DNA of 64,000 bases from an uncultured Gemmatimonadales bacterium (GTDB lineage Bacteria; Gemmatimonadota; Gemmatimonadetes; Gemmatimonadales; GWC2-71-9), in the NCBI GenBank assembly GCA_963821525.1, contig CAWGED010000005.1, positions 448,001 to 512,000 of the forward strand. Direction: 5' to 3'. The stretch's first letter is position 1. Each line of letters starts with the position of its first letter. Below, in pieces: positions 27,778 through 52,826 of this stretch. A program made the translations under genes and the position numbers. The notes under the pieces are model-generated. The model ran no database searches, had not been told where the DNA came from, and saw only the letters and a program-made list of their open reading frames with translations.

Positions 27778-28809
27778 GTGTCGATCTTCGCATTCCCCGA
27801 GAGCCTTCGGCAGCTCGCCGAGTTTCTCCGCCTCGACGCGGCGGAGCTGGTGCGGAAGCTGTCCCAGGTCGTGGTCATTTGGCTCCTGGCCTTCGGCGCC
27901 TGGCGTCTCGTCCGCCTCATCTCCAGACGGATCGTCAAGGCCGTAGATGACGGCGACGACGCGGCGTTCACCGAACGGGAGCAACGCGGCTACACCATCG
28001 CTCAGTTGCTGAGGAGCCTCGGCGTGGCTGTTATCCTCGGGGTCTCGATCCTCCTGAGTCTCAACGTCTTCGTGAACATCGGCCCATTGCTGGCGGGCGC
28101 CGGCATTCTGGGCTTGGCCATTTCCTTCGGTGCCCAGAGCCTGGTCAAGGACATAATCACCGGATTCTTTTTCCTTTTTGAGGGCCAGTTCGCCGTGGGC
28201 GATGTGATCGAAGTAGCGGGCAGGTCAGGTGTCGTCGAAAGAATGACCCTGCGGGTCGTCATGCTGCGCGACGCAAATGGCGTCTTGCACATAGTCCCCA
28301 ACGGCCAGGTCACCACCGTGAGCAACATGACTCGCACCTGGTCGAGGGCCGTGGTGGACGTCGGGGTGGCGTACGGCACCGACGTAGACAAGGCGCTCGA
28401 AGTCTTTCGGGACGAGGCCAATCGGTTCGCCAAGGACGAGCACTGGGCGTCGAGGTTCGACGGCGATCCTGAGGTGGTCGGTGTCAACTCGCTCGATGAG
28501 AGCCAGATCACGATCCGGACCCAGTTCCGCACCCATGCCGGACAGCAGTGGGCAGTAGGACGGGAATTTCGCCGCCGCATCCTGAGTCGGCTGGCGCATG
28601 AGGGGATAGAGATTCCCTTCCCCGCCCGCAGCGTGAACCTTCGCATTGCGGACGCCAAGGCGCTTGCCAAGGCGATGGGGCAGGGTGGCGATGGTGAACC
28701 CGAGGCTCCCCCCGAATCAGCCGAGCAACCGGAACCCCCGGCAGCCGAGCTACCGGAACCCCCGACAGGCGAGACCGTGGAACCGGCGGCGCCTACGTCT
28801 CACGACTGA
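27778..28809 (+). CDS. Small-conductance mechanosensitive channel (YbiO-like MscS)
   Basis: LLAGAGILGLAISFGAQSLVKD, QFAVGDVI, GVLHIVPNG, GIEIPFP. Confidence 0.92.
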   Translation: MSIFAFPESLRQLAEFLRLDAAELVRKLSQVVVIWLLAFGAWRLVRLISRRIVKAVDDGDDAAFTEREQRGYTIAQLLRSLGVAVILGVSILLSLNVFVNIGPLLAGAGILGLAISFGAQSLVKDIITGFFFLFEGQFAVGDVIEVAGRSGVVERMTLRVVMLRDANGVLHIVPNGQVTTVSNMTRTWSRAVVDVGVAYGTDVDKALEVFRDEANRFAKDEHWASRFDGDPEVVGVNSLDESQITIRTQFRTHAGQQWAVGREFRRRILSRLAHEGIEIPFPARSVNLRIADAKALAKAMGQGGDGEPEAPPESAEQPEPPAAELPEPPTGETVEPAAPTSHD

Positions 28810-28820
28810 GCTCCAGCTCC

Positions 28821-30285
28821 ATGGCCCTCCGCCTCTACAACACCCTCACCCAGCGGGTGGAACCCTTCGAGCCGATCCGGCCGGGCCATGCTACGCTCTA
28901 CACCTGCGGGCCGACGATCTGGAACTACGCCCACATCGGGAACTTCCGGACCTTTCTCTTCGAGGATCTGTTGCGTCGCTGGCTGATCGCCAGCGGCTTC
29001 AAGGTCCTCCAGATCATGAACCTCACCGACGTGGATGACCGGATCATCCGCGAAGCCTCGGCGAAGGGCGTCGCAATCGGGGACTTCACTGCTCCGTATG
29101 CCGAGGCCTTTCAGCAGGACCGGAAATGGCTTCGGATCCAGGACGCGGAGGAATACCCGCGCGCCACCGGGTTCATTGCGCCCATGATCGAGCTGGTTGA
29201 GGGCCTGCTCGCCAAGGGCGTCGCATATAAAGGAGAGGACGGCTCGGTCTATTTCGCGATTGCCCGCTTTCCGGCCTATGGGAAACTGTCCCAGCTGGAT
29301 AAGCGCCAATTGAAGACCGGTGCCAGCGGCAGGGTCTCCTCCGATGAGTATGACAAGGAGAACGCCCAGGACTTTGTCTTATGGAAAGCGGCGAAGCCGG
29401 AGGATGAAGCCGTCGGAGCAGCATGGGATGCGCCGTTCGGCCGCGGCCGGCCGGGATGGCACCTCGAGTGCTCGGCCATGGCGCTGGCACTCCTCAAGCA
29501 GCACGGCGCCGGGGACGTACTCGATATCCATGCCGGCGGAGTGGACCTGATCTTTCCCCATCACGAGGATGAGATCGCGCAGAGCTGCGCCTTTACCGGG
29601 CAGCCGTATTTCGCGCGCTACTGGCTGCACGGAGAGTTTCTGAATATCCGCGGCACCAAGATGTCGAAGCGCTTTGGGAACATCACGACCCCTCGGGACC
29701 TGCGGGAGGACGGGGTGGATCCGGGCGCGGTTCGACTGTTGGTCTTCCAGGCTCACTATCGCCAGAAGATGGATCTGACCGACGAGTCGCTCGCGATGGC
29801 CCGGGAGAGCGCGCGGCGCCTGGGGGAATTCGATGGGCGGTTTCGCGCCGCAGGCGCCGACGGGGAGCAGTGGTAGGATGGGGCCGAGGTGACGGTGATG
29901 ATCTCAATGCCCCCCGGGCCATCGCCGCTTTGTTCGACGCCACGCGCGAAGGAAATCGCCTTCTGGACAACGCGAGACTCCGACTCCCGCCGCCCTCGCC
30001 GCTTGGGAAAGGTTCCGACGTCTTCGACCCCTTCCCGGCGGTTCGGGAGCAGTGCGGGTGGACTTTCGATTGGAGGGCGCGGGGATCGTAACCTCGCTGT
30101 CCTCAACACCACCAGATGACGGCGAACAGGCGACCGCCTGGGCCCGGTCTTGGGCCGCAGCCCGGATCTCTGCGAAGAAGGCGAAGAATTTTGCCGAGGC
30201 GGATCGGATCCGCGCCATGCTTAAACAGCACGGCTTCGAGATCCGGGATGGGAAGGACGGCTCGGTAGAGGTAAGGCGGATGTAA
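28821..30285 (+). CDS. cysS: Cysteinyl-tRNA synthetase (frameshifts in the 3' part)
   Basis: YTCGPT, HIGN, GRPGWHLECS, DIHAGGVDLIFPHHEDE, KMSK, DDLNAPRA, ADRIRAML...IRD. Confidence 0.95.
30068..30285 (+). repeat. cysS 3' end, copy 1 (left boundary of the insert)
   Basis: Aligns with 39565-39783; shared exact 26-mer AAACAGCACGGCTTCGAGATCCGGGA at 30223-30248. Confidence 0.88.
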
Positions 30286-30365
30286 ATCGTCGGCACTGCT
30301 CCTCTAAAACAAAAGCGCCCGCACCCTTGTGAGAGCTGCGGGCACCGTTGGGTCGAGCTCGGGCA

Positions 30366-31727
30366 CTAGGGCTGCCAGCGCGCTGCGACCTTGTTCTGTA
30401 CGGTCACGACGTATCCTGCGACAACTGGTCCGTCCGTAGCTTCGCTCAGGCCTAACGCTTCGCCGTGGCCTTCCAGTAGTTGGAGCGTCCCACTCGTGCC
30501 CCAGAACACAGGCCTCAGGATGCCATTGGGCGGAGCCTGTGCAGAGCCGGAAACTTGGCCCGAATTGTTGATGGCGAAGGCCGCGCTGCCCGAACCCAGG
30601 TCGGGAAGGAACGTCACTGTCCAGCTACCACCTGAAGGCGCCCATTGAGTCGCGCGGTTGACGAACTTGTTTCTCCCGAGGGAGATGGAGGTCCAGCCCA
30701 CGATGACACCAGCATCGTTGATGTCTCGAACGGAGACAGCAGAGGTCCCGGCTGGCAACGGCAGCAGGATCGGTGCTGCTGTCGGTGATGCCCAGAGCGC
30801 GGCCCGATTCTGGCCCGCAACTGTGCACTTGGCAACAACGGCTTCCAGGTTGTTGATCCCAGGGTAGCCCGAGCATCTCGTCGCGCCGCTAGGCAGCTGC
30901 AGCATCTGCCATCCGGTGCTCTCCGACCATACGGCCGAAACGTCCATAGCGGCCACCGATCCCGCCTCGTTGATCGCCATTGCACCGGCGAGCGACCCGT
31001 CCGGAAGCCGTGGGAGCGCTTCGACCTGATAGGTACCCCCCGACGGCACCCATCGCACGTCGCTCGAGAAGGCGGATCCGATGTAGGCCATTCCTACCAC
31101 GACACCGGCACTGTTGATGTCGGTTGCCACGCCACCGCAGGTGCCTGGCAGCGCGGGTAACGCGGTGAGCTGCCCCAACTGATCCCACACCGCCGGGCCC
31201 CAGCCCGGGCCGCACGGGACAGTAACCCTTCCCGCGATTAGCCCGTTGTCGCTCACTCCATACACGTCCGAAAATCCCGAGGGCGCGTTCAGCACCTCGG
31301 CCGACACCAGCACCGCGAACTTCTCCGTCCCGATCCCCTTCTTGCCGGTGGATTTCGTGACCATGACGTCGTAGGAGACGGGAGCCGCGTCTGCGGCAAC
31401 GCTGACATTGGCCAGCAGCTCGGTGCTCGAAAGGTAGGTCGTGGAGTTGACTTGGAGCTTCGGGTCAACCACCCCCGCCCGGGCAAAATCGACCTTCGAA
31501 CCTTGGTCGTAGTTCGTGCCGAGGATGTGAACGTCAAGCGTGGAATCCTGTGGCGCCTCCGCCGGATCGGCGCTGGTGACCGTGGGATCGCTCCCACCGC
31601 CCTTGGCGAATGCAAGATCCCCGGCATTGGGCTGGGTGCTTCGGGGCTCGGCACAAGACAAGCCGAACACCAGCAGGAGGACAGCACCCAGCAGGGTTCC
31701 TTGCCTCACCTTCAAGACGGCGGCCAT
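30366..31727 (-). CDS. Lipoprotein with Ig/IPT-like domain and HAF-like extracellular repeats
   Basis: Signal peptide ending GLSC; repeats ATDINSAGVVVG, AMAINEAG, VRDINDAGVIVG, AFAINNSGQVSG. Confidence 0.8.
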   Translation of the reverse strand: MAAVLKVRQGTLLGAVLLLVFGLSCAEPRSTQPNAGDLAFAKGGGSDPTVTSADPAEAPQDSTLDVHILGTNYDQGSKVDFARAGVVDPKLQVNSTTYLSSTELLANVSVAADAAPVSYDVMVTKSTGKKGIGTEKFAVLVSAEVLNAPSGFSDVYGVSDNGLIAGRVTVPCGPGWGPAVWDQLGQLTALPALPGTCGGVATDINSAGVVVGMAYIGSAFSSDVRWVPSGGTYQVEALPRLPDGSLAGAMAINEAGSVAAMDVSAVWSESTGWQMLQLPSGATRCSGYPGINNLEAVVAKCTVAGQNRAALWASPTAAPILLPLPAGTSAVSVRDINDAGVIVGWTSISLGRNKFVNRATQWAPSGGSWTVTFLPDLGSGSAAFAINNSGQVSGSAQAPPNGILRPVFWGTSGTLQLLEGHGEALGLSEATDGPVVAGYVVTVQNKVAARWQP

Positions 31728-31784
31728 ACGACCTCCCATTCGAGTCTTACGGGAATCGGTAAGAACGAGCGAGAACCCTCCTAT

Positions 31785-34756
31785 TCAGTTGACGGACAGA
31801 GCCCCGTTTTTTTGCGGATGCCCGTCGGCCCCACCTTCCCCGTTCAGGACGTAGCCCGCCCAGTAATACGGCGCCCGCCACTTTGAGTCAGCGAGCATTT
31901 CCCGCTGGGTTAAGGCCAGGGCCTCGGCGGCTGCCACGGCAGGGTAGTGACGGTAGAATCGGGCGGCGAACTCGGCTGCTCCCCGGTCGTCCACCCGCCA
32001 AAGAGTCGCGATTACGTTCCGAGCCCGGCGTAGAGAAAGGCCCGCGCCAATGTTGCGAAGTCGTCTCCCGGCGCGAACCCGGTGCTCCATGCCCCGCCCA
32101 GTCCGGTCTCGCACCCCGAGAGAAAGACCAGTGGGCTGTGCACCCGGAGGCCGATGATCTCGTGCACTTCGAGCTGCCCGTCGTCGGCGGGATCGCTGGC
32201 CACCTCTGGATGGTCCGGTAGCGAGCCTTGGAGAACATCGGATTTCGAGGATTGAGCTCGCCGTGAGTCGCCGAGGTGGACCACGCCGCCGGTCTCCAGC
32301 GCGGCTCGAACCGCTGTTTCGCTTGCCCGGCGCCCGAGACGAGGCGGGCGTTGCCCAACGCACGCGCTGCGGCCCGCGCCTCCAATACCGTTCCAGGGAG
32401 CTGGTCAGGGACTGGGGCGAGCACCGAGGCCGGTGCTTCGAGACTCTCCGGTGCGGAGACTATCCGCAAGGCGACCAGCGATGCGGCGGATGGCAAGGTC
32501 AGGAGGGCGAAGTCCTGGATCAGGAACCGGCCCGTGGCGGAGTCAACGACCGCTGCGAACGGGAGATAGGTGAGGATCCCGTGCGGTACGATCACCGAGC
32601 CGGCGGGCTCCCTCAAGCGCACCGCTCCGGCGAACTCGGTGCAATCAGGAAATTCGCCCAGCGCCGCTCAGGACCGGGAGAGCCCTGAGGAGTCCGGCGT
32701 CTCGTTGTGCGACCAACTCCCGAGCGAGACGAACGCGGCTCTGGAGTCCGCCACGCGGCACTGCAACCGTGGTAACGACGAGACCGTGCGACGACCGACG
32801 AAAATCAGCAACGAGTCTTCCACTATCTGATATTCCACCAGCGCTTCGTCGGGCCGAAGACGAGCGAGGACAGCCGCCGCTGGGGTTTGCCCGGCCCCGA
32901 GAAGGGCGGTACCGGGGGTATGCAATTCCCCGATCCGGATCGCGAGCTCCTCATACGCGCGCCGCTCCGCAGCGAGTGGGTCCCGCAGGAAGGCGAGACG
33001 GGTGACGGTGGTGGAGTCGGAGGCCTCGGTCGGCATCTCCCTCAGCGTCGCGTATCTGCTCGGTCAACGCGTCGATCTGGCGGAGCAGCTGGTCACCTTC
33101 CTGGAGCGCGCGGCTGGACGCGGCTGCTGAAGGGCCGGAGTTTCGCGAGGATGCCGAGTCCTTCAACCAGCGCGCGCCCTCGCGCGGCGTCGGCCACCTC
33201 GAACGCCTCCTCCGTCCTGCCCAGTCGCCGGAGCACTTCCGCGAGATCCGCGTACGCGCCCTGCTTTCCCGCCAGGTAGCTCGTGCGAAGCACGCCGGAC
33301 CCATAGTTGCCGCGCACGCGCTCCAGTGCGGCGAGCGCGCGCGGCCCACGACTGCGGCGGAGTCGAGTTGTCCGAGCCTCGCGAGCGCGCGGGCCTCGAG
33401 TCGGAGTGCCTCCTGTTCAATGCCGTACCCGCCGGCCTCCAGATCGAGCCGCGCGTCCCCGTAGCGCACGAAGCGCGCGTGTCGCATCCGCCGTGCGATC
33501 GGCGATTCGCGCCTCCGCCAGCGCCACCTCGGCCCGACCCCGGCGAACACCAAGCGACAGAGCGAGTTTCCGTGCGGCCGCGATGCGCTCGGCAGAGCCC
33601 TTCGGGTCTTCCGATCGGGCCGCGAAGTCCGCTAGGAGCAGGAGGTCGGCCAGCTCCTCGAATCGCGCGCAGGCCGCCGGTGCATGCCGAGCGCCTCGCC
33701 AGCTGCCGCGGACGCCTGTTCCATTGCTCCGAGGTCGCCCTGGATCTCTGCCTCGCTCCGGAGGTCCGCTCCCGCCTCGACGGTGAGATTCAACTCCCGA
33801 TTGATCGGCTCTGCTCGACCGTAGAAGTCCAGCGCATGCTGGACGTCGCCGGCCTCCCGGTAAAGCTCGGCCATCGCCTCCAGGTTACTCGCCTCCTCCT
33901 GGCGGAGCCCTTGGCGCCGCGACAGCTGCGAGCGCGCTATCGAGCGCGGCTAGGGCGAGATGCGGCTGTCCCAGAGCGGCGTAAGCGGTGCCCAGCTGTC
34001 CGAGCGCGTTCTGTTCGCCGTAGCGTATCCGATCGAGCGGTAGCGCGTGCGGGCCTGCTCGAGCAGTGGGATTGCGACTCCGGGATCGCCGACGCGGACG
34101 GCGAGCATTCCCAGGTTAGTGAGCGCGTTGCCTTCGATGCGCGCATCCGCGAGCGCCCGTCCCGCGACCCGCATCGAATCGAAGCCCCGACGGGCTTCGT
34201 CGAACTGCCCGAGATCGGTCTGGACCAGCGCGAGATTGCCGGAGGCCGACGCGATACCCTTGAGGTCCGCCGCCGCACGAGCGGCCGCGGAGGCGCGACC
34301 GAAGAGCTCGGTAGCATCGGAGAGCCGCCCCTCGTTCCAGGCGAGGAGCCCGAGGGCGTTGTAGGACTTGAAGAGATCGGCGTCGAGCGCCAAGCGGCGC
34401 TTGAGAGCGAGCGCCTCCTCTCCGAGGCGGCGGGCGATTCTGGTAATCGCCCAGGCGCCACGCGCGAGGCCGAGCCAGGTGAGCGACCGCGCCTCGGCGA
34501 TCGAATCGTGGAGCGCACGACTCCGCTCGAGAGCGACAGTCCATATGACGCTCGCGCTGTCGAACTCGCCGCGCAGGTACACTCCCTCGCCGAACGCCAG
34601 CAGCGAGTCCAGCGGCCTTGAGGACAGGGCCGAATCGTGGGTCTCGGCGGGTGGGCGCGCAGTGCTGGTGGTCGGCTCGGGGCTCGGGCGTTCCTTACAT
34701 GCCGCGTGAGAGCCAGGACGGTCACGACGAGCCGCCGGCGGCCAGTGGCGACTCAC
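31785..34756 (-). CDS. TPR-CHAT (caspase-like) protease, predicted lipoprotein (many frameshifts)
   Basis: TPR fragments (YNALGLLAW, SGNLALV, LTNLGML); IVPHGILTYLPFAA; ATHG; LVFLSGCETG; VIATLWRVDD; PYYWAGY. Confidence 0.85.
31789..31817 (-). promoter_or_regulatory. Putative ECF promoter, copy 1
   Basis: Minus strand CCGCAAAA-N10-CTGTCCGTCAA, about 60 nt upstream of the 31727 start. Confidence 0.65.
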
Positions 34757-35332
34757 GGCGCTATCTGGAATTCGTGAACTGTGCCGCCGATCGAGCGACC
34801 ATCGCCGAGCAACACGTCCACGTACCAATAGTAGAGTCCGGCCCCGCGCGGGAAACCTCAAGGGAAGGCAGGGACGATCGTATCCCTCGAGGTTGTCGCC
34901 CACACCGAATCGCCGTCGGCTCGGCTCACTGAGATTCGGGTAGGTCGTTGCCCCTGGTAAGGCGTGCCAGGTGAAATCCGCAGGGCCGTGCAGAATTGCT
35001 CCGTCCGTCGGTGCCACGATCCTGATCCCAGCCTGATCATCCGTGCCCCGGACTCGCGATGCGTCAGAGGGGCCGCGATGTAAGAGGGCCGGCCCGAGCA
35101 GGGCGACGCCCGCCACAACTGCAGCGGCCGCTGCCACTGCGGCCAGGCGGCGCATCGGGGTGCGGTCGCTCGCCGGAGCCGTCCCACCGCGACGAGCTCC
35201 GAGGTGCAGTCGGCGCAATCCGCCAGATGCAGCTCGACTCGTTCCCGATCCGACGGGAAAGCGTCCCGGCGAGGTAGCGCACGACCTTCTCTACCTCAAG
35301 GTGAGCGAGCTGGCGATTTGTGGTTGACTCAT
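34753..35332 (-). CDS. zf-HC2 membrane anti-sigma factor (frameshifted)
   Basis: Reconstructed RYLAGTL...VELHLADCADC, TM helix RRLAAVAAAAAVVAGVALL, then a beta-rich extracytoplasmic domain (FTWH...YWYV); stop overlaps the CHAT start (GTGA). Confidence 0.72.
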
Positions 35333-35399
35333 CAAGCTGCCTCCCCGTAAAACCACGCGGCTTCTAGACAAGACGGATTGGAACGCGCGGTTTGCGGGA

Positions 35400-36067
35400 T
35401 CATGGTTCGAACCGCTCCACTCCCAACACCTGAAGCTGGGTTCGCAAGGCCACGAGCACCTTGTCCAAGCGGCGATAGAGCGTGGAAGAGCGTAGGGAAG
35501 CGCATGAGCCGGGCGATTTCGCGAGCCGGAAGGTCTTCGCCGAATCGAAGGCGGAGGAGCAGCCGGTCGCGAGGAGGAAGCCCTTCAAGCACCAGCGAGA
35601 GTGCCCGGGTGAGTTCGGACCGGGCCAGAAGCGCATCGGGGGCTGCCGTGCGCCGGGGCTGCGAGTAGCGCCGGGTCAAACTGATCGGCCACGAGGTCCA
35701 CCAGGCGCCGGCGTTTGGCACGCTCCGCTTGCGAGGAGATCTCCCGCCGGGCCATCGCGGCTTCGGCCATAGCGGTGGCGATGATGATCCAGGCACAGTC
35801 GGCGGACACGACGATGAGCCAGAGCCCAAACGGCCCGGATCCTGGCCGCGTGTAGGCTCGAAGCCGGCGGCACCCATCCTCCCGCAGGCGCTCCAGGACG
35901 AACGTATAGCGATCCATCACGGTGTCCTGGTTGCCACCCAGCGAGCGCACGACGTGAAGGATCTGATCGGTGTGGGCGTGGACGAAGCTGGTCCACGCCT
36001 CCTCGATTGCGGTCTCGGTCGGGGCGTCAAGGAGCGAGAACAGTTCCAGTGGCGCCGTGAACGGCAC
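35400..36067 (-). CDS. ECF-type sigma-70 factor (frameshifted)
   Basis: EAWTSFV, FGLWLIVV..RLCLDHHR (region 2); LPPRDRLLLRLRFGEDLPAREIARLM (region 4 HTH). Confidence 0.85.
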
Positions 36068-36244
36068 GCCGAAAGCCTCGTAGGCCACGTGCAGGACCTC
36101 GTCCCGAGTCTGAACCAAATTTTCCAACGGGGGGACAACTGAGATGGGCGGATAATCGACCCACCGCAAATTAGCGCCTTTGTACCCGCGCTCGCTAGGG
36201 GCAGCAACGAACTCGGCGGGCAGGTCCGCTGCCTGCCGACTCTC

Positions 36245-36272
36245 CCGCAAAAGAAGCGAACCTGTCCGTCAA
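36245..36272 (+). promoter_or_regulatory. Putative ECF promoter, copy 2
   Basis: CCGCAAAA-N9-CTGTCCGTCAA, about 60 nt upstream of ATG 36334. Confidence 0.65.
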
Positions 36273-36333
36273 TGATTGATACGCGACAGGATATCGCACG
36301 ATTCAGAACCCAACCAAACCGAACGGCCTAGCC

Positions 36334-36591
36334 ATGCGTGTCACCGTGAGGCCGACGCTCGAGCTACCGCTCTTTGGTCGTCCCGGACCGGCAATAGGCG
36401 CCTTGCGCGCCGCAGTGCTCGCGGGCGCCCAGCCTGCCAGTACGCGTTCTGGCAGTCGTCGCCCGCTCGCGGTGGTGGTGATGGGAGTCGCGGGGGTCCT
36501 GCTCATCGCTCTGCAGATGGTGCAATGGTGGGCCGAGATGCCATTCGCGGCAACGTTTCCGGGGGGAGGCTGGCCGCTTCATGTCCGCTGA
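36334..36591 (+). CDS. Small single-TM hypothetical protein
   Basis: 85-aa ORF with hydrophobic stretch LAVVVMGVAGVLLIALQMV, downstream of promoter copy 2. Confidence 0.55.
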   Translation: MRVTVRPTLELPLFGRPGPAIGALRAAVLAGAQPASTRSGSRRPLAVVVMGVAGVLLIALQMVQWWAEMPFAATFPGGGWPLHVR

Positions 36592-36899
36592 ACATGGGGC
36601 GGCCGGGGGCTCGGTCCGCGCAGTGAGCGCCAGACTGTGAAGCCGTAACGCCGGCAACAACGGACACATCGTGTTACAACCCTTAGCAACGGAGCCCGTC
36701 ATGTCCTGCTGGCGCTGCAGGTTTATTATAGGTAGGGGGGTAAGAAAACAGTAAAAAGTGAATAGAACTATAGGTGCAGGAAGTATGCAGTATCGCGCCG
36801 CTGTGCTACGGGCGTGCTGGCGCTGGCCTGCAGTCCGGAACCACCCACGCACCCCAGGAGAGGTCGGCAGCCGCGTAAAGATTCAGCTCGCCTCAGCAG

Positions 36900-38552
36900 C
36901 TCGAGGGCACAGATAGGGATAAGGTCGTGGCTGGGCTAAACACCACCGGCGACCTAAGATCAGGGAAAGAACGCTTGTACGGCTGGGGCGAGAAGAACCT
37001 CCGGACGGTGAGACGTTGGGGACAGTTACGCAACTGGCTGGTACAGACGGGACAATAGCAATCGCCCCAGTGAGCAATGGCGGTGGAGAATCCCCGCTGG
37101 CATAGAGCACTATGGGATGAACGATGAGCGGTCGGGGGAATCGTAGCATGACGAACAATCGAGAGGACGAGCGAGCTCGAGACTGTCTGGTAGAAAGAGG
37201 GACAGATCGGTTTGGAGAGAGATGCGGACGGTCAACTGGGATCGGCGATCTACGTAATGAACGCTGAAGGCTCAGCTCAGACGTGCCACGCAGCAATCAT
37301 GGAGGCAAGAATTCGACTACCTTGACGGAGCGCGCGTACGGGACGAAGCTCGGCTATGAGATGAGTCTGCGGCAGTAAGTCGCCCAACGCCGCGATCTAT
37401 GTGATGAACGCCTGATGGCCGGGCCGGTTGAACGAGCACGAAGGACCCGGTGCGAAGTACTGGAAGCTCAACTGGTATGGGCAGATCGGCCAGGCGGATC
37501 GCGAAGAGCCGCCCTGTGCGTGAGCACACATCGACGGCGACCCTGCTACGCTGACGCCCAGCGAGGAGTATCTTGAACGCACATGAAAGTGCACGAAGGT
37601 TAGCGCCGACGTGTATTTCATGAACAACGTGGGCGAGGACGACTTCCCCGTGGTGTTCGCCTGACGAGACCGAGATCGACTTCTGGACCATTCGACGAAG
37701 GCGAGCGATGGATACACGTCATGAGCTGCGACGGTGGAATCAAAAGGCATCTAGACTCTTAGGATGGTGGCTAGTGCTTCGATGTCCGCTGGATGGGGGC
37801 TGGGACAAGTGGTGATGGTCAGCTTGGCGTGAGCAGCCTCGGAACCGGCGTGTCGGTGCAGCTAGTAGATCCCAGTGACCGATTTCCACACGGTACAGCT
37901 GAGGATCGATAACGGAACGGTAGCGGCAGACCCTGTCACCCCAGTGCGCAGGGTGACGAGACGCTAGGACAAGGCTGGTGACTGACTGGGGGATATACAC
38001 GAGCTGACGACCAGGTTGGCGGGTACAGCGGTACTGTGTGCTCAGCTACGACCGGCTACGTCCCGAGACCGGTCGAACGTGCAACTTAACAAGGCGTCGT
38101 TGGGGACTGGACTGAGTGATCACAGCCAAGATCAGGCGCCCACTGACTTGTGGTAGGACACCGCGGAGTCTGGCAACTACGTCTACTGCTGGAAGAGTGT
38201 ACGACAGCGATGCGCGGCGTCTTCGAGACGATGGACAGCACGGCCAGGTGCTGAACGTGACCGAAGGCGGGCTCCAGCACGTCCCACATGAAGTTCTCGC
38301 TCGGTGGAGCATCAGGGCCTCGACGTGTTGGCCTTCCAGCCCAGTACCGGCAGCATCAGTTGCCTGGGGCTATTCCGGTCATCGACGTTGTCGAGTTCAC
38401 CACCACGAACATGCCCGGCCTCACGTACGACGCCACCGCCGACCAGTACACCTACGTGTGGAAGACGCAAAGACTGGGCCGGCACCTGCCGGAAGTTCGT
38501 GCTCGATTTGAAGGACGGCACTCAGCACGTCGCGCTGTTCCAATTCAAATAG
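36900..38552 (+). pseudogene. Heavily corrupted TolB/PD40-repeat protein with C-terminal PxKF-like domain
   Basis: Remnants IYVMNAEG (~37247), IYVMNA (~37395), DVYFMN (~37608); C-terminus KFSLGG...LTYDATADQYTYVWKT..WAGTCRKFVLDLKDG..HVALFQFK; start approximate. Confidence 0.55.
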
Positions 38553-38578
38553 TCGGCTCACCTACGTCCGGAGGCTGT

Positions 38579-39450
38579 ATGCGGAACGTGTTGCTGCTCC
38601 TGTTGGGCGTGTCGGCTGCGGTCGATCGGCTGCTTCCACCGTGGACGACAAGAAGCCCGAGGCCGGAACCGTTACAGCCGATGAGCGTCGGCGAATGGAG
38701 GATTCGGTCCATGCGTGGCTCGCGAGAATTTTCCACGACTGGGAGAAGGGTGATAGCGTGGCGTTGATGGGTACCTATCTGCCGGGTGATGGGTCGGTAG
38801 TTTCGGCAGGGGATGGTGAGCTGTATACGTCGAGAGATTCGGTAGCGGCGTTTCTCATCGGGGTGGATAAGATCACGGGAAAGAAGGGTAGCTTTGAGAA
38901 GCCACTATCGTACGACGTGTTGGCGCCGGGAATGGCGGCGCCACCGTACAACATCCAGTTCGAGGGGCGTAAACCCGAACAAGCAGAAGTTTGAGGGTCG
39001 CGGGAGTCTATAGCGTGGTCGTCGTTGAGCGCGAGGGCCACCTGCACATCGTGCAGGAGCACCAGTCCCTGGCTCCTGACCCGAACGAGGCGGAGGCGGC
39101 GATCGCGGGCATCAATAGTGTGGGTGTCGCATGGCAGAGAGGCCGTGGCAACGCGAGGACACCGCCGCGATCAAGTCGGTTCTGCACTGAGGACGACATC
39201 TATTCGCCTGACAACGAGGCGCACCGTTGGAGGCCGCGATTCTGCAGCGGCCAAGGTGGGCATGTGGAGTTTGGTTAGCCTGAGTTTTCGATCTTGAGCG
39301 ATCTGAAGTCACCGTGCTGGATCGAGTAGTGACCGCCGGTGACCTAGCGGCCAGGAAACCAGCGGACTTACGTCGTAGCGACTATCGGACCAGGGCAAGG
39401 CGGCAACACCGAGAGGAGGTGGCCCTACATGACGGTCTTGGTCGTAAGGA
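38579..39450 (+). pseudogene. SnoaL/NTF2-like (DUF4440-like) exported protein, corrupted
   Basis: GGAGG RBS, signal-like start, WEKGDSVALMGTY, YDVLAPGMA, GVYSVVVVEREGHLHIVQEHQS; end approximate. Confidence 0.5.
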
Positions 39451-39564
39451 TCGGTGGTGAGATGGCGGATGGCCTCGTACATGTGGAACGCGCTGAGACG
39501 AGCTCACGGGTAGCGCGCTAGGGCCGCCTGACCGAAGATGGACGGTGAGCGCAAACGCCCAGCT

Positions 39565-39783
39565 GATTGGGAGAGAGTTGGAGGTGGTCATCTCCGAGTC
39601 TTCAACCCCTCCGGTTAACAGGCGAAGACGGCCGAGTGGGCCCGGTCCTGGGCTTCGGTGCGCCTGGCGGCGAAGAAGCAGAAGAATTTCGCCGAGGCGG
39701 ACCGGATTCGTGCCATGCTGAAACAGCACGGCTTCGAGATCCGGGACGCCAAGGATGGTTCGATCGAGGTAAGGCGGGTCTAA
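39565..39783 (+). repeat. cysS 3' end, copy 2 (orphan fragment, right boundary of the insert)
   Basis: Encodes VISESSTPP...WARSWASVRLAAKKQKNFAE..RIRAMLKQHGFEIRDAKDGSIEVRRV*. Confidence 0.88.
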
Positions 39784-39851
39784 AACCTCCGGGACCGCCG
39801 CAATGGCGGGTTTCGGACGGTGCCGGGCCAGAGTTCGGCGACTGCGTCCGG

Positions 39852-39881
39852 TTGACACAACTCCAAGTCACCCATTATCAT
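39852..39881 (+). promoter_or_regulatory. Sigma70 promoter for the tRNA cluster
   Basis: TTGACA-N18-TATCAT about 25 nt before the first tRNA. Confidence 0.6.
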
Positions 39882-39906
39882 ATGTGTCTGTCCGTTTTCG
39901 CTGCCC

Positions 39907-39979
39907 GCTGACGTAGCTCAACTGGCAGAGCACCGGTTTTGTAAACCGGCGGTTGAGGGTTCGATTCCCTCCGTCAGCT
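39907..39979 (+). tRNA. tRNA-Thr(TGT)
   Basis: GCTGACG/CGTCAGC acceptor stem, CCGGT-TTTGTAA-ACCGG anticodon arm, TTCGATT T-loop. Confidence 0.95.
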
Positions 39980-40018
39980 CTGGAGTCGAGCGGATCAGCG
40001 AGGTGAGGAGCGGGCGCC

Positions 40019-40102
40019 GGTGGGGTGGCCGAGTGGCTAATGGCAGCAGACTGTAAATCTGCCGGGCTCTGCCCTACGTAGGTTCGAATCCTACCCCCAC
40101 CA
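40019..40102 (+). tRNA. tRNA-Tyr(GTA)
   Basis: GCAGA-CTGTAAA-TCTGC anticodon arm, long variable arm, TTCGAAT. Confidence 0.95.
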
Positions 40103-40145
40103 TGTTGGGGAGTGCAGGGCGAGGCCGCACCGAAAGGATCAGTTA

Positions 40146-40213
40146 GAGGACTGAGGACCGAGGACTGAGTGTGAGAGGCAGGGATTCAGTCCCCGGTCGT
40201 CAGTCCTCAGCAC
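40146..40213. repeat. Palindrome of 7-nt tandem repeats (GAGGACY / TCAGTCC)
   Basis: gaggact-gaggacc-gaggact ... tcagtcc-ccggtcg-tcagtcc-tcagcac, between tRNA-Tyr and tRNA-Gly. Confidence 0.8.
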
Positions 40214-40234
40214 TTTGATCCCAGTTTGCTTCGC

Positions 40235-40307
40235 GCGGGTGTAGCTCAGTTGGTAGAGCATCAGCCTTCCAAGCTGAGGGTCGCGGGTTCGAGCCCCGTC
40301 GCCCGCT
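40235..40307 (+). tRNA. tRNA-Gly(TCC)
   Basis: TCAGC-CTTCCAA-GCTGA anticodon arm; GCGGGTG/CGCCCGC acceptor stem. Confidence 0.95.
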
Positions 40308-40310
40308 CTC

Positions 40311-40383
<73 letters not shown>

Positions 40384-40394
40384 CTGGTGGGAAC

Positions 40395-40490
40395 GTCAGC
40401 CATTAGCTGTTAGCAGTTAGCTGCTTCGGTTAGGCTGCGACGGATTCGATGAAAATGCTGAGGGCTAACAGCTAATAGCTAACGGCTGAG
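40395..40490. repeat. Palindrome of 7-nt tandem repeats (GTTAGCT / GCTAACA)
   Basis: gtcagcc-attagct-gttagca-gttagct ... gctgagg-gctaaca-gctaata-gctaacg. Confidence 0.85.
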
Positions 40491-40496
40491 GATACA

Positions 40497-40649
40497 GTGC
40501 CCCGAGAGAAAATCATCATGGAATGCACCGACTGTAAGAGTCGGAACTATTTCCAGGACAAGAACCGGCGGAAGCACCCCGAGCGGGTGGAGTGGAAGAA
40601 GTTCTGCCCCCGCTGCAACAAGAGCGTGCTCCACAAGGAATCCAAGTAG
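40497..40649 (+). CDS. rpmG: 50S ribosomal protein L33, zinc-binding form
   Basis: Manual translation [18 protein letters not shown]...[17 protein letters not shown]. Confidence 0.93.
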
Positions 40650-40885
40650 TGGAACAGGTGACCAAGGCACCCGCGCATCCCGCGCGGTGGATGGGCCAGT
40701 CGGTGGACTTCATCCGCTCGGTGAAGGCCGAGCTCAAGAAGGTCACCTGGCCCACGCGCGATGAGTTGTCCAAGGCCACCCGGATGATCCTGATCCTCGC
40801 GGTGGTCCTCGGACTCGCCATCGGGTGGATGGATCTCCTGTTCAACTGGATCCTGGTGACCGGGGTGGCGAGGATCGGCAGGTGA
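40649..40885 (+). CDS. secE: Preprotein translocase subunit SecE
   Basis: ELKKVTWPTR followed by a TM helix. Confidence 0.93.
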   Translation: MEQVTKAPAHPARWMGQSVDFIRSVKAELKKVTWPTRDELSKATRMILILAVVLGLAIGWMDLLFNWILVTGVARIGR

Positions 40886-40893
40886 CGGTGGCC

Positions 40894-41436
40894 ATGGAGT
40901 ACCGCTGGTACGCGATCCAGACCACCGCCGGTCACGAGAACAAGGTTCGCGGTCTTCTGGTACAGCGCATCGCGCAGGACCCCCGGCCCGAGGAGCAGCG
41001 GCTGATCCGTCAGGCGCTGGTGCCGGTGCAGGAGGTCATCGAGATCAAGAACGGCAAGAAGGTGACCGTAGAGCGGAAGCTCTATCCCGGTTACGTGCTG
41101 GTCGAGATGGCGATGAACCAGGAGAGCCTGCACGTCGTCAACAGCATTCAGGGCGTGATCAAGTTCGTGGGAGCCGGCCGCTTTCCTCAGCCGCTCCGGC
41201 AGGATGAAGTGAACCGTCTCCTCGGCATCGCCGAGGCGGTGGCGGAGGCGGAGCCGAAGGAGGAGATCCCCTTCCTGGTTGGCCAGGTGGTGGAGATCAC
41301 CGAGGGCCCCTTCTCCGACTTCAGCGGGACGGTCGAAGAAGTGCTGTCCGACAAGGGCAAGGTGAAGGTCTCGGTCAGCCTGTTCGGCCGGCCAACGAGC
41401 GTGGAATTGGATTATCTACAGTTGAGGGGTCATTAG
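40894..41436 (+). CDS. nusG: Transcription factor NusG
   Basis: WYAIQTTAGHENKV, LYPGYVLV, KOW domain GPFSDFSG. Confidence 0.96.
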   Translation: MEYRWYAIQTTAGHENKVRGLLVQRIAQDPRPEEQRLIRQALVPVQEVIEIKNGKKVTVERKLYPGYVLVEMAMNQESLHVVNSIQGVIKFVGAGRFPQPLRQDEVNRLLGIAEAVAEAEPKEEIPFLVGQVVEITEGPFSDFSGTVEEVLSDKGKVKVSVSLFGRPTSVELDYLQLRGH

Positions 41437-41592: not shown

Positions 41593-42019
41593 ATGGCAAA
41601 GAAGGTCACCGCAGTCATCAAGCTGCAGTGTCCGGCTGGCGCAGCGAATCCCGCGCCGCCCGTGGGCACCGCGCTCGGTCCGCACGGCGTGAACATCATG
41701 GAGTTCTGCAAGCAGTTCAACGCCAGGACCCAGGGTCAGGCCGGGATGATCATCCCGGTGTTGGTCACGGTCTATCAGGACCGGACCTTCTCATTCATCA
41801 CCAAGACCCCGCCGGCCCCGAACCTCATTCTGAAGGAAGCGGGACTGGAGAAGGGAAGCGGCCAGCCCAACCGGACCAAGGTGGGGCGAGGTCACGCGCG
41901 CGCAGCTCAAGAAGATCGCCGAGCTCAAGATGGCCGACCTGAATGCGGCCGACCTCGACGGCGCGATGCGGATGATCGCGGGCACCGCGCGATCGATGGG
42001 CGTGGAGGTGGTGGACTGA
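41593..42019 (+). CDS. rplK: 50S ribosomal protein L11 (frameshift near 41885)
   Basis: [32 protein letters not shown]. Confidence 0.95.
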
Positions 42020-42708
42020 TGGCTACCGCCGGCAAGAGGTTCCGCGCCGCGGTCACCAAGGTGGACCGCACCAGGGAGTACGCCATCAGCGACGCCGTAG
42101 TACTCGTGAAGGCAGCCGCCTTCGCAAAGTTCAACGAAACGGTGGACGTCGCCGTACGGCTGGGCGTGGATCCCCGCCATGCGGACCAGGTCGTCCGCGG
42201 TACCGTCGTCCTGCCCCACGGCACCGGTAAGTCGGTCCGGGTGCTGGTCATCGCCCAGGGAGACAAGGCCAAGGAAGCCGAAGCCGCCGGGGCGGATTTC
42301 GCCGGCATGGAATTCATCCAGAAGCTCAAGGACGGCTGGTTGGAGTGCGACGTCATCGTCGCCACGCCGGACGTCATGGGGCAGTTGGGCCAGCTGGGCC
42401 GGATCCTCGGTCCCCGCGGCCTCATGCCGAATCCCAAGGCCGGGACCGTGACGATGGACGTGACCAAGGCCGTTCGGGAGATCAAGGCGGGCAAGATCGA
42501 GTTCCGGGTAGACAAGACGGGGAACGTTCACGCCCCGATCGGGAAGATCAATTTCTCGGCCCAGCAGCTCGCCGAGAATCTGCAGGCTTTCATGGATACG
42601 ATCGTCCGCGCCAAGCCGGCGGCGGCGAAGGGTCATTACATCCAGTCGGCGACGGTCTCCAGCACCATGGGCCCGGGCGTTCGGCTTGAAATGGCGGGTT
42701 ACCGATGA
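42019..42708 (+). CDS. rplA: 50S ribosomal protein L1
   Basis: [32 protein letters not shown]. Confidence 0.96.
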
Positions 42709-43194
42709 GCAAAACCGAACGCCAAACCGAGGTCGAGGCCCTGACCGCGGAGCTCGCGGCGAGCCCGAACCTCTACGTCACCGATTTCCGCGGGCTCAAC
42801 GTGCTGCGGATGACGGAGTTCCGCCGCCGCCTGCGGGGAGCCGGTGCCCGCTACATCGTGGTCAAGAACACGCTGGCTCAGCGCGCGCTTGGCCGCCAAC
42901 AAGATCACCGGGCTGGACGAGTTCCTCGCCGGCCCGACCGGATTCGTCCTCAGCACCGACCCGCTGCCTGCGGCCAAGGTACTGACCGAGTTCGTCAAGG
43001 AGTTCGAGAAGCCGGCCATCAGGGCGGGCTTTGTGGACGGGGCCCCGGTCAACGTGGCTCATATCCAGCGGCTGGGAGCAATCCCATCGCGGGAAACGCT
43101 CCTCGCCATGGTGGCGGGGACGCTCAACAACATCGTCGCCTCATTCGCTGGCTGCCTCGAGGCGCTCCGCGAGCAGCGCAGCGCTGCTTCTTAA
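42705..43194 (+). CDS. rplJ: 50S ribosomal protein L10 (frameshift near 42890)
   Basis: [25 protein letters not shown]. Confidence 0.92.
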
Positions 43195-43215
43195 CCGTCG
43201 GGAGATAATGTCGAC

Positions 43216-43605
43216 ATGACTACCACAGCGCTTGGCAAGGAAGAGATCCTCGAAGCCATCGGCAAGATGAGCGTGCTCGAGCTCGCCGATCTGATCGAGG
43301 CCTTCAAGTCAAAGTTCAACGTCTCGATCGTCGCGGCCGCAGGAGCTGCCGGGGCGGGTGGGGCAGGCGGCGCGGCCCCGGCGGTCGAGGAGAAGACTGA
43401 GTTCGCCGTCATCCTCAAGGAAGCCGGTGCCAAGAAGATCCAGGTCATCAAGGTGGTGCGGGAACTGACCAGCCTGGGTCTGAAGGAGGCGAAGGACCTG
43501 GTCGATGGCACGCCGAGCACGGTGAAGGAAGGCGTGACCAAGGCCGAAGCCGAAGAGATGAAGAAGAAGCTGGAGGAGCAGGGAGCCGTCGTCGAACTGA
43601 AGTAG
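43216..43605 (+). CDS. rplL: 50S ribosomal protein L7/L12
   Basis: [25 protein letters not shown]. Confidence 0.97.
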
Positions 43606-43800
43606 GGCCACGCCCTGTCCTGAGCGGTGTCGGCCCTCGGCCGATCCCGCGATGGATTTGGCCGAAACCCCTACTTCGGTGAGACGCATGACGGTTGAAA
43701 ACTGCTGGTAATTCTGATTGGTGCGTGCGCCCCGTGTGGCCCCTTCGCATTCGGCGAAGGGGCACGCGCCGGGGCCCTTTGTGTTGCGTGAGAGTGCCTG

Positions 43801-52826
<9,026 letters not shown>

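Follow-up and report, generated by a model that had tools for sequence, protein, structure and literature searches.

The question raised by this locus is whether a protease of the TPR-CHAT type (tetratricopeptide repeats followed by a caspase-like CHAT domain) can act outside the cytoplasm as the dedicated enzyme that inactivates an anti-sigma factor. The locus lies in a 64,000-nucleotide stretch (the window) of the genome of an uncultured Gemmatimonadales bacterium (positions 448,001 to 512,000 of contig CAWGED010000005.1, assembly GCA_963821525.1), where three genes co-oriented on the minus strand encode a sigma factor of the extracytoplasmic function (ECF) type, an anti-sigma factor and a TPR-CHAT protein. 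A first-pass annotation had proposed that ligand binding to the TPRs triggers cleavage of the anti-sigma factor and release of the sigma factor, and had stated that no example was characterised. That last statement was wrong, as the DdvS/DdvA pair of Myxococcus xanthus is a characterised fused version (described in PMC11506125), and we conclude that the triad is genuine and conserved and represents a split version of the switch formed by DdvS/DdvA. The reading we favor, which we judge somewhat better than even, is that the TPR-CHAT protein is a dedicated site-1 protease that would cut the anti-sigma factor after a conserved Arg in its linker, freeing the sigma factor via RseP.

In a six-frame translation, the pieces of the three genes were scattered over the reading frames; among the open reading frames (ORFs) of the window, Pfam detected Sigma70_r4, TPR and three CHAT pieces, the CHAT pieces scoring over the cut-off. 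The genes were aligned in a frameshift-aware manner with the close intact homologues P0201, P0202 and P0321 and with a more distant homologue from locus L043. The CHAT gene had 83% identity to P0201 across 962 codons with 18 shifts, and 20 shifts were needed against P0202, with which the N-terminus was covered. The anti-sigma gene had 91.5% identity to P0321 across 188 codons with 6 shifts, and the sigma gene had 47% identity to the L043 homologue with 4 shifts. The triad thus contained a total of 28–30 frameshifts within 4.3 kb, and none of the alignments for the three genes contained an in-frame stop. The anti-sigma stop and the GTG start of the CHAT gene overlap by 4 nucleotides.

Errors of assembly are the most likely source of these approximately 30 small indels, because rpoB and ribosomal protein genes are also broken and because relatives show indels at the breaks. 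On the same contig, rpoB is broken into three pieces. In short-read contigs of relatives that are ~85–95% alike, indels coincide with, or fall a few bases from, at least 11 of the triad breaks (32023, 32195, 32226, 32273, 32595, 32636, 32654, 32665, 33154, 33676 and 35166). Frameshifts affect rplK, rplA, rplJ and rpoB (window 41593–46000 and contig C5); the contig is noisy, and its ORF calls are unreliable. It is very improbable that the module is real in relatives and decayed here, with the indels representing true pseudogenisation. The density of breaks compared with only three pieces for rpoB, the position of the module inside an inserted islet, and the finding that no sequencing run among those searched contained the exact strain would all fit such decay; against it stand the lack of in-frame stops, the 83–91% identity to intact homologues, the retention of all key residues and the breakage of essential genes on the same contig. 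Of RNA runs containing the sequence, the search of sequencing runs listed none. As assembled, a 422-aa ORF (33950–35218) joins the anti-sigma transmembrane (TM) segment to the TPRs; we rejected it as a spurious fusion produced by the assembly. This ORF and the existence of natural fusions could suggest that the anti-sigma and TPR-CHAT proteins are one DdvA-type protein split only through errors, which we find hardly credible: P0321 terminates at the window's stop (192 aa), the closest CHAT homologues begin with their own signal peptides, and the natural fusions fall in a sister clade.

The ECF sigma factor is encoded beside its anti-sigma factor, as in DdvS/DdvA. By alignment, the anti-sigma factor contains the zinc motif HxxxCxxC, with its His at 35229 and its Cys residues at 35217 and 35208; its homologues match zf-HC2 in Pfam, and the zinc domain with a single TM is again a DdvS/DdvA feature. 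The structure model consists of three N-terminal helices, the TM helix, a linker (residues 85–99) with pLDDT <50, and an outer beta-sandwich that matches FN3 modules in fold comparison. The best PDB match was DdvA (8ROT, E 1.2e-8), with the DdvA N-terminus at the top. The outer domain was also considered as DUF928, for which Pfam gave no match. Alignment, Pfam and the model therefore bear out the earlier description of three co-oriented genes and of an anti-sigma factor with HxxxCxxC, one TM, an external domain and a stop that overlaps the CHAT start.

Several variants of the anti-sigma factor were seen at other loci. Those of L034, L039, L041, L175 and L184 are without the zinc ligands, with the TM, Arg and FN3 kept and with the sigma and CHAT genes still paired. 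Tandem zinc domains (two) occur in L040, L049, L050, L051, L113, L118, L121 and L151, and in the first four of these loci the sigma factor carries an insertion between regions 2 and 4. At L094, L108 and L138, apparently soluble zinc anti-sigma factors without a TM lie beside CHAT genes; they carry an Arg-Gly/Ser motif and end in a beta domain, in a layout that resembles that of ECF54. CHAT genes are also adjoined by secreted stand-alone proteins that combine an FN3-like domain with an Arg linker and have no zinc domain, at L110 (5380–6381), L153 (10643–11662) and L228 (8346–8888); these are possibly decoys or alternative substrates.

The CHAT protein is likely exported, judging from its N-terminus and those of its homologues. 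A lipobox pattern was present within the first 50 residues of 78 of the 120 closest CHAT homologues and a hydrophobic N-terminus in 101 of them, many of the others appearing truncated N-terminally by the gene caller. The lipoprotein-like signal noted earlier is supported by this pattern and by the alignment of the Cys at 34699 with that of P0202. In other CHAT clades the hydrophobic N-terminal signal lacked the Cys, and some members also had a TM at the C-terminus; this broader survey took the most hydrophobic start and was used qualitatively only. The model of the CHAT protein (pLDDT 89.8) consists of a TPR solenoid followed by a pseudo-caspase domain and a caspase domain, and its fold matches were separase, DdvA and Csx29. 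An intact homologue scored 194 bits for the CHAT domain (PF12770), with the dyad and TPRs present. Alignment confirmed that the catalytic His and Cys are intact (32265 and 32113), as first annotated. In the window's clade (101 rows of alignment A4), C864 and D906 were invariant and H814 was present in at least 90%; these counts were drawn from alignments because a regular expression for the dyad missed motif variants (87/120 homologues).

An S1 Asp approximately 41 positions past the catalytic Cys is a feature of the Arg-specific proteases separase and HetF. Separase cuts after Arg, and its P1 Arg is bound by a conserved Asp, Asp2070 (PMC10317155). This Asp is at C2029+41 (C2029 being taken from a PDB title), and the candidate S1 Asp of the CHAT protein is at Cys+42; the CHAT profile aligned with C. 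thermophilum separase across 80 columns, at equal length. Among 179 CHAT proteins, the S1 column contained Asp in 166, including that of the window, Ser in nine, Ala in two and a gap in two. It is Ser in S. brodae Csx29 and Asp in DdvA.

A matching feature was found in the anti-sigma factors. An Arg located ~10–25 residues past the TM, in the segment modelled as disordered, was present in 77/77 aligned anti-sigma factors (after removal of six rows that were truncated or were not anti-sigma factors) and in 94/94 of a larger set, and was invariant in alignment A5; kin within these counts are not independent. The pattern [DE]x2-3R[GADSE] occurred in 41 of the 77 linkers, compared with a mean of 14.5 and a maximum of 28 in 1000 shuffles. 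The CHAT protease HetF cuts PatU3 between R117 and S118 (PMC9457339), and craspases cut after Met or Leu (as stated in PMC11506125). Pairs with the S1 Asp had the linker Arg in 86/86 cases scored, one further pair being gapped there and a few being near-duplicates. In an acidobacterial clade with Ser or Ala at S1, the linker site, read by eye, was Met or Leu in 15/21 pairs and Arg in 6/21; two further regions of this set were without CHAT. Met or Leu at the linker site was therefore seen only alongside S1 Ser/Ala (15/21 vs 0/86 Asp pairs). This co-variation, in one clade only, runs in the direction predicted for a true P1 residue.

The catalytic His has been lost in the sister clade of the window's clade, a single branch of 36 rows (support 94, one row gapped) in which it is replaced by Tyr, Phe, Asn, Arg, Val, Ala or Leu while the Cys is kept. 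A His directly preceding the linker Arg was found in 21 of 29 scored partners from this clade vs 0 of 58 His-intact pairs; this co-variation represents one evolutionary event, and eight of the 29 are without that His. Substrate-assisted catalysis has been engineered in subtilisin. Either the members of the His-less clade are pseudo-proteases, or their substrates could, in nature, provide a residue for catalysis.

The triad is conserved elsewhere. A profile of the anti-sigma outer domain (E up to 0.001) matched in 162 of 401 genomes of the phylum, a tally that takes in some matches to FN3 that are weak, as well as the unpublished genome G177, on which nothing else here rests. From the 150 matches that were listed, of a total of 251, we examined 80, spread over the E-value range and on longer contigs. 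CHAT was present in 72 of these regions, sigma in 76 and both in 69, in co-oriented, convergent and divergent layouts, which upholds the conservation expected of such a module. Of the eight regions without CHAT, two end at a contig edge and one is a sigma fusion. At L241 (5088–6380), a sigma-like domain is fused to a TM and FN3, with both the Arg motif and a nearby CHAT absent. In 79 CHAT-anchored loci from other genomes, a zinc anti-sigma factor was found in 28, including loci of Acidobacteriota, Aminicenantes and Ignavibacteriaceae. Natural anti-sigma-FN3-TPR-CHAT fusions were found in three loci (L166, L180 and L189), which form one subclade with L036. Against 50%-representatives, the best 150 matches of the outer-domain profile were multi-repeat giant proteins only, a result that informs on the FN3-like fold and not on distribution. 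The genome of the window contains a second, intact triad of another clade (G000:C8:106651–110883, L001). There the CHAT gene is convergent, its product begins with a signal and is anchored by a TM at the C-terminus, and the anti-sigma factor has the same Arg motif. The acidobacterial genome G416 has 15 CHAT matches, most of those fetched being without a sigma or zinc anti-sigma gene nearby.

To model the complex, P0201 (residues 62–956) and P0321 (88–192) were used as near-cognate stand-ins from different organisms. The ipSAE was 0.66, compared with 0.00 for the best of three controls; the runs agreed in at least 79% of contacts, and the partner pLDDT was at least 68. This mark is reached by 116/157 solved complexes and 2/215 mismatches, counts that apply roughly with the alignments used here, and neighbouring genes with paired alignments may pass it more easily. 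The confident contacts place FN3 residues 129–187 on CHAT residues 651–682, 289–331 and 874–875, that is, largely on pseudo-caspase helices (651–682) and TPR residues (289–331). PDB searches found no solved FN3-CHAT complex. The model thus predicts docking of the FN3 domain on the protease; of the CHAT:anti-sigma interaction proposed in the first-pass annotation, it supports the binding (0.66 vs 0.00) and does not extend to cleavage.

Under the favored reading, the lipoprotein TPR-CHAT would sit docked on the outer FN3 domain of the anti-sigma factor, and a signal would lead it to cleave the linker close to the membrane, after the conserved Arg. RseP, whose gene is encoded elsewhere in the genome, would then finish the anti-sigma factor. 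The freed sigma factor would transcribe the flanking surface-lipoprotein genes from GCAA-n16-CGT promoters and also the anti-sigma/CHAT pair itself, giving feedback. A number of observations weigh against this reading. R95 is outside the confident contacts of the model, so that the Arg is not positioned at the active site there. Cleavage of DdvA was proposed and not demonstrated in the published account; mutants of the DdvA dyad retained their repressing activity, and no autoproteolysis was triggered by phage Mx4 (PMC11506125). Five full-length regions (L176, L185, L205, L227 and L230) have an anti-sigma factor with the Arg and no CHAT within ~5 kb, and the profile detected no zinc anti-sigma factor in 51 of the 79 CHAT-anchored loci. 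The His-less clade keeps the linker Arg (29 scored pairs), so the Arg can persist without a canonical dyad; if cleavage is held to be universal, pseudo-proteases in that clade would also count against it. The bare motif R[GADSE] occurs in ~54 of 77 shuffled linkers, the search profile included the Arg column, and MAFFT gaps can slide to align an Arg. Finally, the Asp/Met co-variation comes from one clade in which 6/21 Ser/Ala pairs keep Arg, and the second Ser/Ala set was found using a Met-type query.

Two other mechanisms must be considered. RseB is a precedent for a protein that acts as both sensor and shield. The TPR-CHAT protein could play such a part on the FN3 domain, with the Arg linker as a pseudo-substrate, and be released upon signal so that another protease makes the first cut. 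We consider this unlikely, although several results point toward it: the modelled interface joins FN3 to non-catalytic helices, a whole clade is without the catalytic His, and in DdvA the TPR-CHAT sterically blocks RseP and dyad mutations are without effect at rest (PMC11506125). The retention of His, Cys and Asp in the window's clade, and of the Cys even in the His-less clade, argues for an enzyme instead. It is also conceivable, and in our judgement improbable, that the CHAT cut is a constitutive maturation step after which the fragments stay associated until a signal pulls the FN3 fragment away. The Arg, S1 and docking evidence fits that scheme equally well, and the DdvA Discussion gives a precedent of self-cleaving anti-sigma factors; but full-length DdvA was stable, with no evidence of constitutive cleavage reported (PMC11506125), and the large TPR solenoid suggests gating, by analogy with Csx29 (PMC10028731).

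The site-1 protease reading may extend further, to a widespread trans-envelope class in which exported caspase/separase-type enzymes serve as private site-1 proteases, each matched to its substrate by FN3 docking and by a P1/S1 code (Asp with Arg; Ser/Ala with Met/Leu), with a P2 His supplied by the anti-sigma factor in the His-less clade and with DdvA as one fused offshoot. This generalisation is tentative, and we regard it as rather unlikely in full. If true, the P2 His would be natural substrate-assisted catalysis, in which the protease is active only on its partner.

Coordinates of the features of the triad and its surroundings are collected in Table 1.

Table 1 Features of the triad, its predicted promoters and the surrounding islet (window positions)
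Feature	Position	Strand	Basis
ECF sigma factor, ~4 frameshifts	35400..36067	-	Sigma70_r4; homologues over TIGR02937 cut-off; alignment
Anti-sigma factor, 6 frameshifts	34753..35332	-	91.5% identity to P0321; structure model; FN3 matches
Lipoprotein TPR-CHAT protease, ~990 aa, 18–20 frameshifts	31785..34756	-	Pfam; alignment; model; fold matches
Lipobox Cys of CHAT signal peptide	34697..34699	-	Aligns with Cys20 of P0202; homologue pattern
Linker Arg conserved among anti-sigma factors (R95 in P0321), predicted as P1	35048..35050	-	Alignments
Catalytic His	32263..32265	-	Alignment
Catalytic Cys	32111..32113	-	Alignment; invariant in 101 rows of A4
Candidate S1-pocket Asp (Cys+42), counterpart of separase Arg-binding Asp	31986..31988	-	D906 invariant in A4
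GCAA-n16-CGT in the gap from the sigma to the anti-sigma gene, predicted sigma-dependent promoter	35373..35395	-	
Predicted promoter at CHAT 3' end, toward lipoprotein gene, n17	31792..31815	-	2 matches, 0.04 expected
Predicted promoter for divergent genes	36247..36269	+	Similar divergent sites at L197, L210, L214 and L218
Likely output gene: intact lipoprotein with repeats and a choice-of-anchor-Z Ig domain	30366..31727	-	NF058597 over cut-off
Divergent heavily frameshifted cluster, likely output genes	36334..39100	+	Three-frame translation; labels by eye
3' end of cysS, left direct-repeat copy bounding islet	30128..30291	+	
Diverged cysS 3'-end copy (80%), right islet boundary	39626..39789	+	

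The predicted promoter motif, GCAA-n16-CGT, is one base different from that of DdvS, GTAA-n16-CGT (PMC6061681), and three copies, one with n17, are present here. It recurs at the same places in two sister clades. The pattern of the promoter between the sigma and anti-sigma genes had two matches in the window vs 0.05 expected, and in its strict form was found at that gap in 9/46 sister-clade loci and 0/38 other loci. The promoter at the CHAT 3' end, with a spacer one base longer, lies inside an A run and is at the same position in homologous loci. Genome-wide, a relaxed pattern gave similar counts at every spacer length (2, 3, 4, 5 and 1 for n14–n18), which gives no ground for claiming a regulon outside the islet. 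A weak sigma-70-like −35/−10 pair with a 17-nucleotide spacer precedes the sigma gene at 36179–36207 (minus strand), and inspection by eye showed clearer pairs at L043, L048 and L086; the sigma factor may therefore be made constitutively.

The predicted promoters point at surface lipoprotein genes and not at defence genes. Homologues of the intact lipoprotein lie beside the triads of L043, L044 and L048. The divergent cluster, read by eye, contains fragments that resemble lipoproteins and carry TolB-like repeats, together with a small membrane ORF and further secreted ORFs; four pieces that were scanned had no Pfam match, and a blastx search of the cluster against the fetched loci gave none. 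Across loci, 33/132 immediate neighbours were lipoprotein-like, compared with 69/1454 background genes of this genome, by a crude pattern and with a background taken from a noisy genome. Pfam found Big_5, Big_2, PD40 and RCC1 domains in 12 of 21 hand-picked neighbours and nothing in six. PADLOC, applied to the first 330 aa of the nearest gene on each side, matched seven of the 132 immediate neighbours, all through generic domains, and no CRISPR array was present in 29900–39900; the CRISPR-independent setting inferred earlier agrees with both results.

The triad and its lipoprotein genes lie in a 9.5-kb islet around which the 164-nucleotide cysS 3' end is duplicated at 80% identity; because the cassette is flanked by these two copies, we take it to be an inserted islet. 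No integrase was noticed among the islet ORFs, in which no profile search aimed at integrases was made, and Rfam detected only tRNAs in 28000–41000.

Of the known systems, DdvS/DdvA is the nearest. DdvA is a structurally solved protein in which a zinc anti-sigma domain, a TM and a periplasmic TPR-CHAT are fused (PDB 8ROT, 8RW5 and 8RLZ), and its authors propose cleavage by CHAT followed by RseP (PMC11506125). Shared with the locus described here are an ECF sigma factor, a zinc anti-sigma factor with one TM, a TPR-CHAT, extracytoplasmic in DdvA and predicted to be so here, with a His-Cys dyad and S1 Asp, and the same proposed route; the candidate promoter motif predicted here is near-identical to that of DdvS. 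The differences are that the protease here is a separate lipoprotein gene with its own signal, that the anti-sigma factor ends in a small FN3 domain, and that the neighbours encode surface lipoproteins, whereas the DdvS regulon comprises CBASS and CRISPR-Cas. Because the fusion (found only in the three sister-clade loci) and the defence regulon are both absent, the triad is not DdvA proper. The fused form was reported only in Myxococcota and one Comamonas, the Discussion is silent on a split form, and a term search of the supplements for "Gemmatimon", "Acidobacter", "signal peptide" and "separate" gave no match (PMC11506125). The Gemmatimonadota fusions at L166, L180 and L189, all in the His-less clade, lie outside that distribution. 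A literature search, to which most subscription papers were inaccessible, found no paper on a split exported triad.

The Csx29/Csx30/CASP-sigma system, which the first-pass annotation took as its model, is a more distant relative, since DdvA was the best PDB match for both partners and shares the S1 Asp. There too a TPR-CHAT protease of matching fold acts on a sigma inhibitor, by cleavage there and as predicted here, but Craspase is cytoplasmic, gated by Cas7-11 and RNA, acts on a soluble inhibitor and cuts after Met/Leu (PMC10028731), and S. brodae Csx29 has Ser where the window CHAT has Asp. The lipoprotein signal and a homologue score of 33.6 bits, vs a cut-off of 300 bits for NF041237, also set the triad apart from Type III-E, as do the neighbouring genes. 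HetF of Anabaena is a CHAT protease that cuts a regulator, PatU3, after one Arg, as is predicted here; it differs in having a TM with periplasmic TPRs and a substrate that controls division and heterocyst development, and the text available to us mentions no sigma factor (PMC9457339). ECF54 sigma factors of Actinobacteria are encoded beside TPR-CHAT genes, and proteolytic control has been proposed for them (PMC7826278 supplement; PMC8999054). In the parts consulted, they are described with no anti-sigma factor, a GTATCAG/CTCC promoter and subtilase neighbours (PMC7826278; PMC8999054). By that description the present triad, from Gemmatimonadales and with an anti-sigma factor and a different motif, is distinct. 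In the DegS-RseA-RseP pathway, a single-pass anti-sigma factor receives a site-1 cut outside the membrane and is then cut by RseP, as is proposed here, but in the triad the site-1 step would fall to a cysteine protease of clan CD whose gene accompanies that of its substrate. Whether a periplasmic CHAT truly cuts an anti-sigma factor was not settled for DdvA, in which enzyme and substrate belong to a single polypeptide. In the split form the two are apart, and there are candidates for the scissile bond, the docking domain, the residue that sets specificity and the promoter; therefore, the question becomes testable. The comparison also suggests that the usual role of such switches is cell-surface remodelling in abundant, mostly uncultured soil phyla, with the control of defence as a special case.

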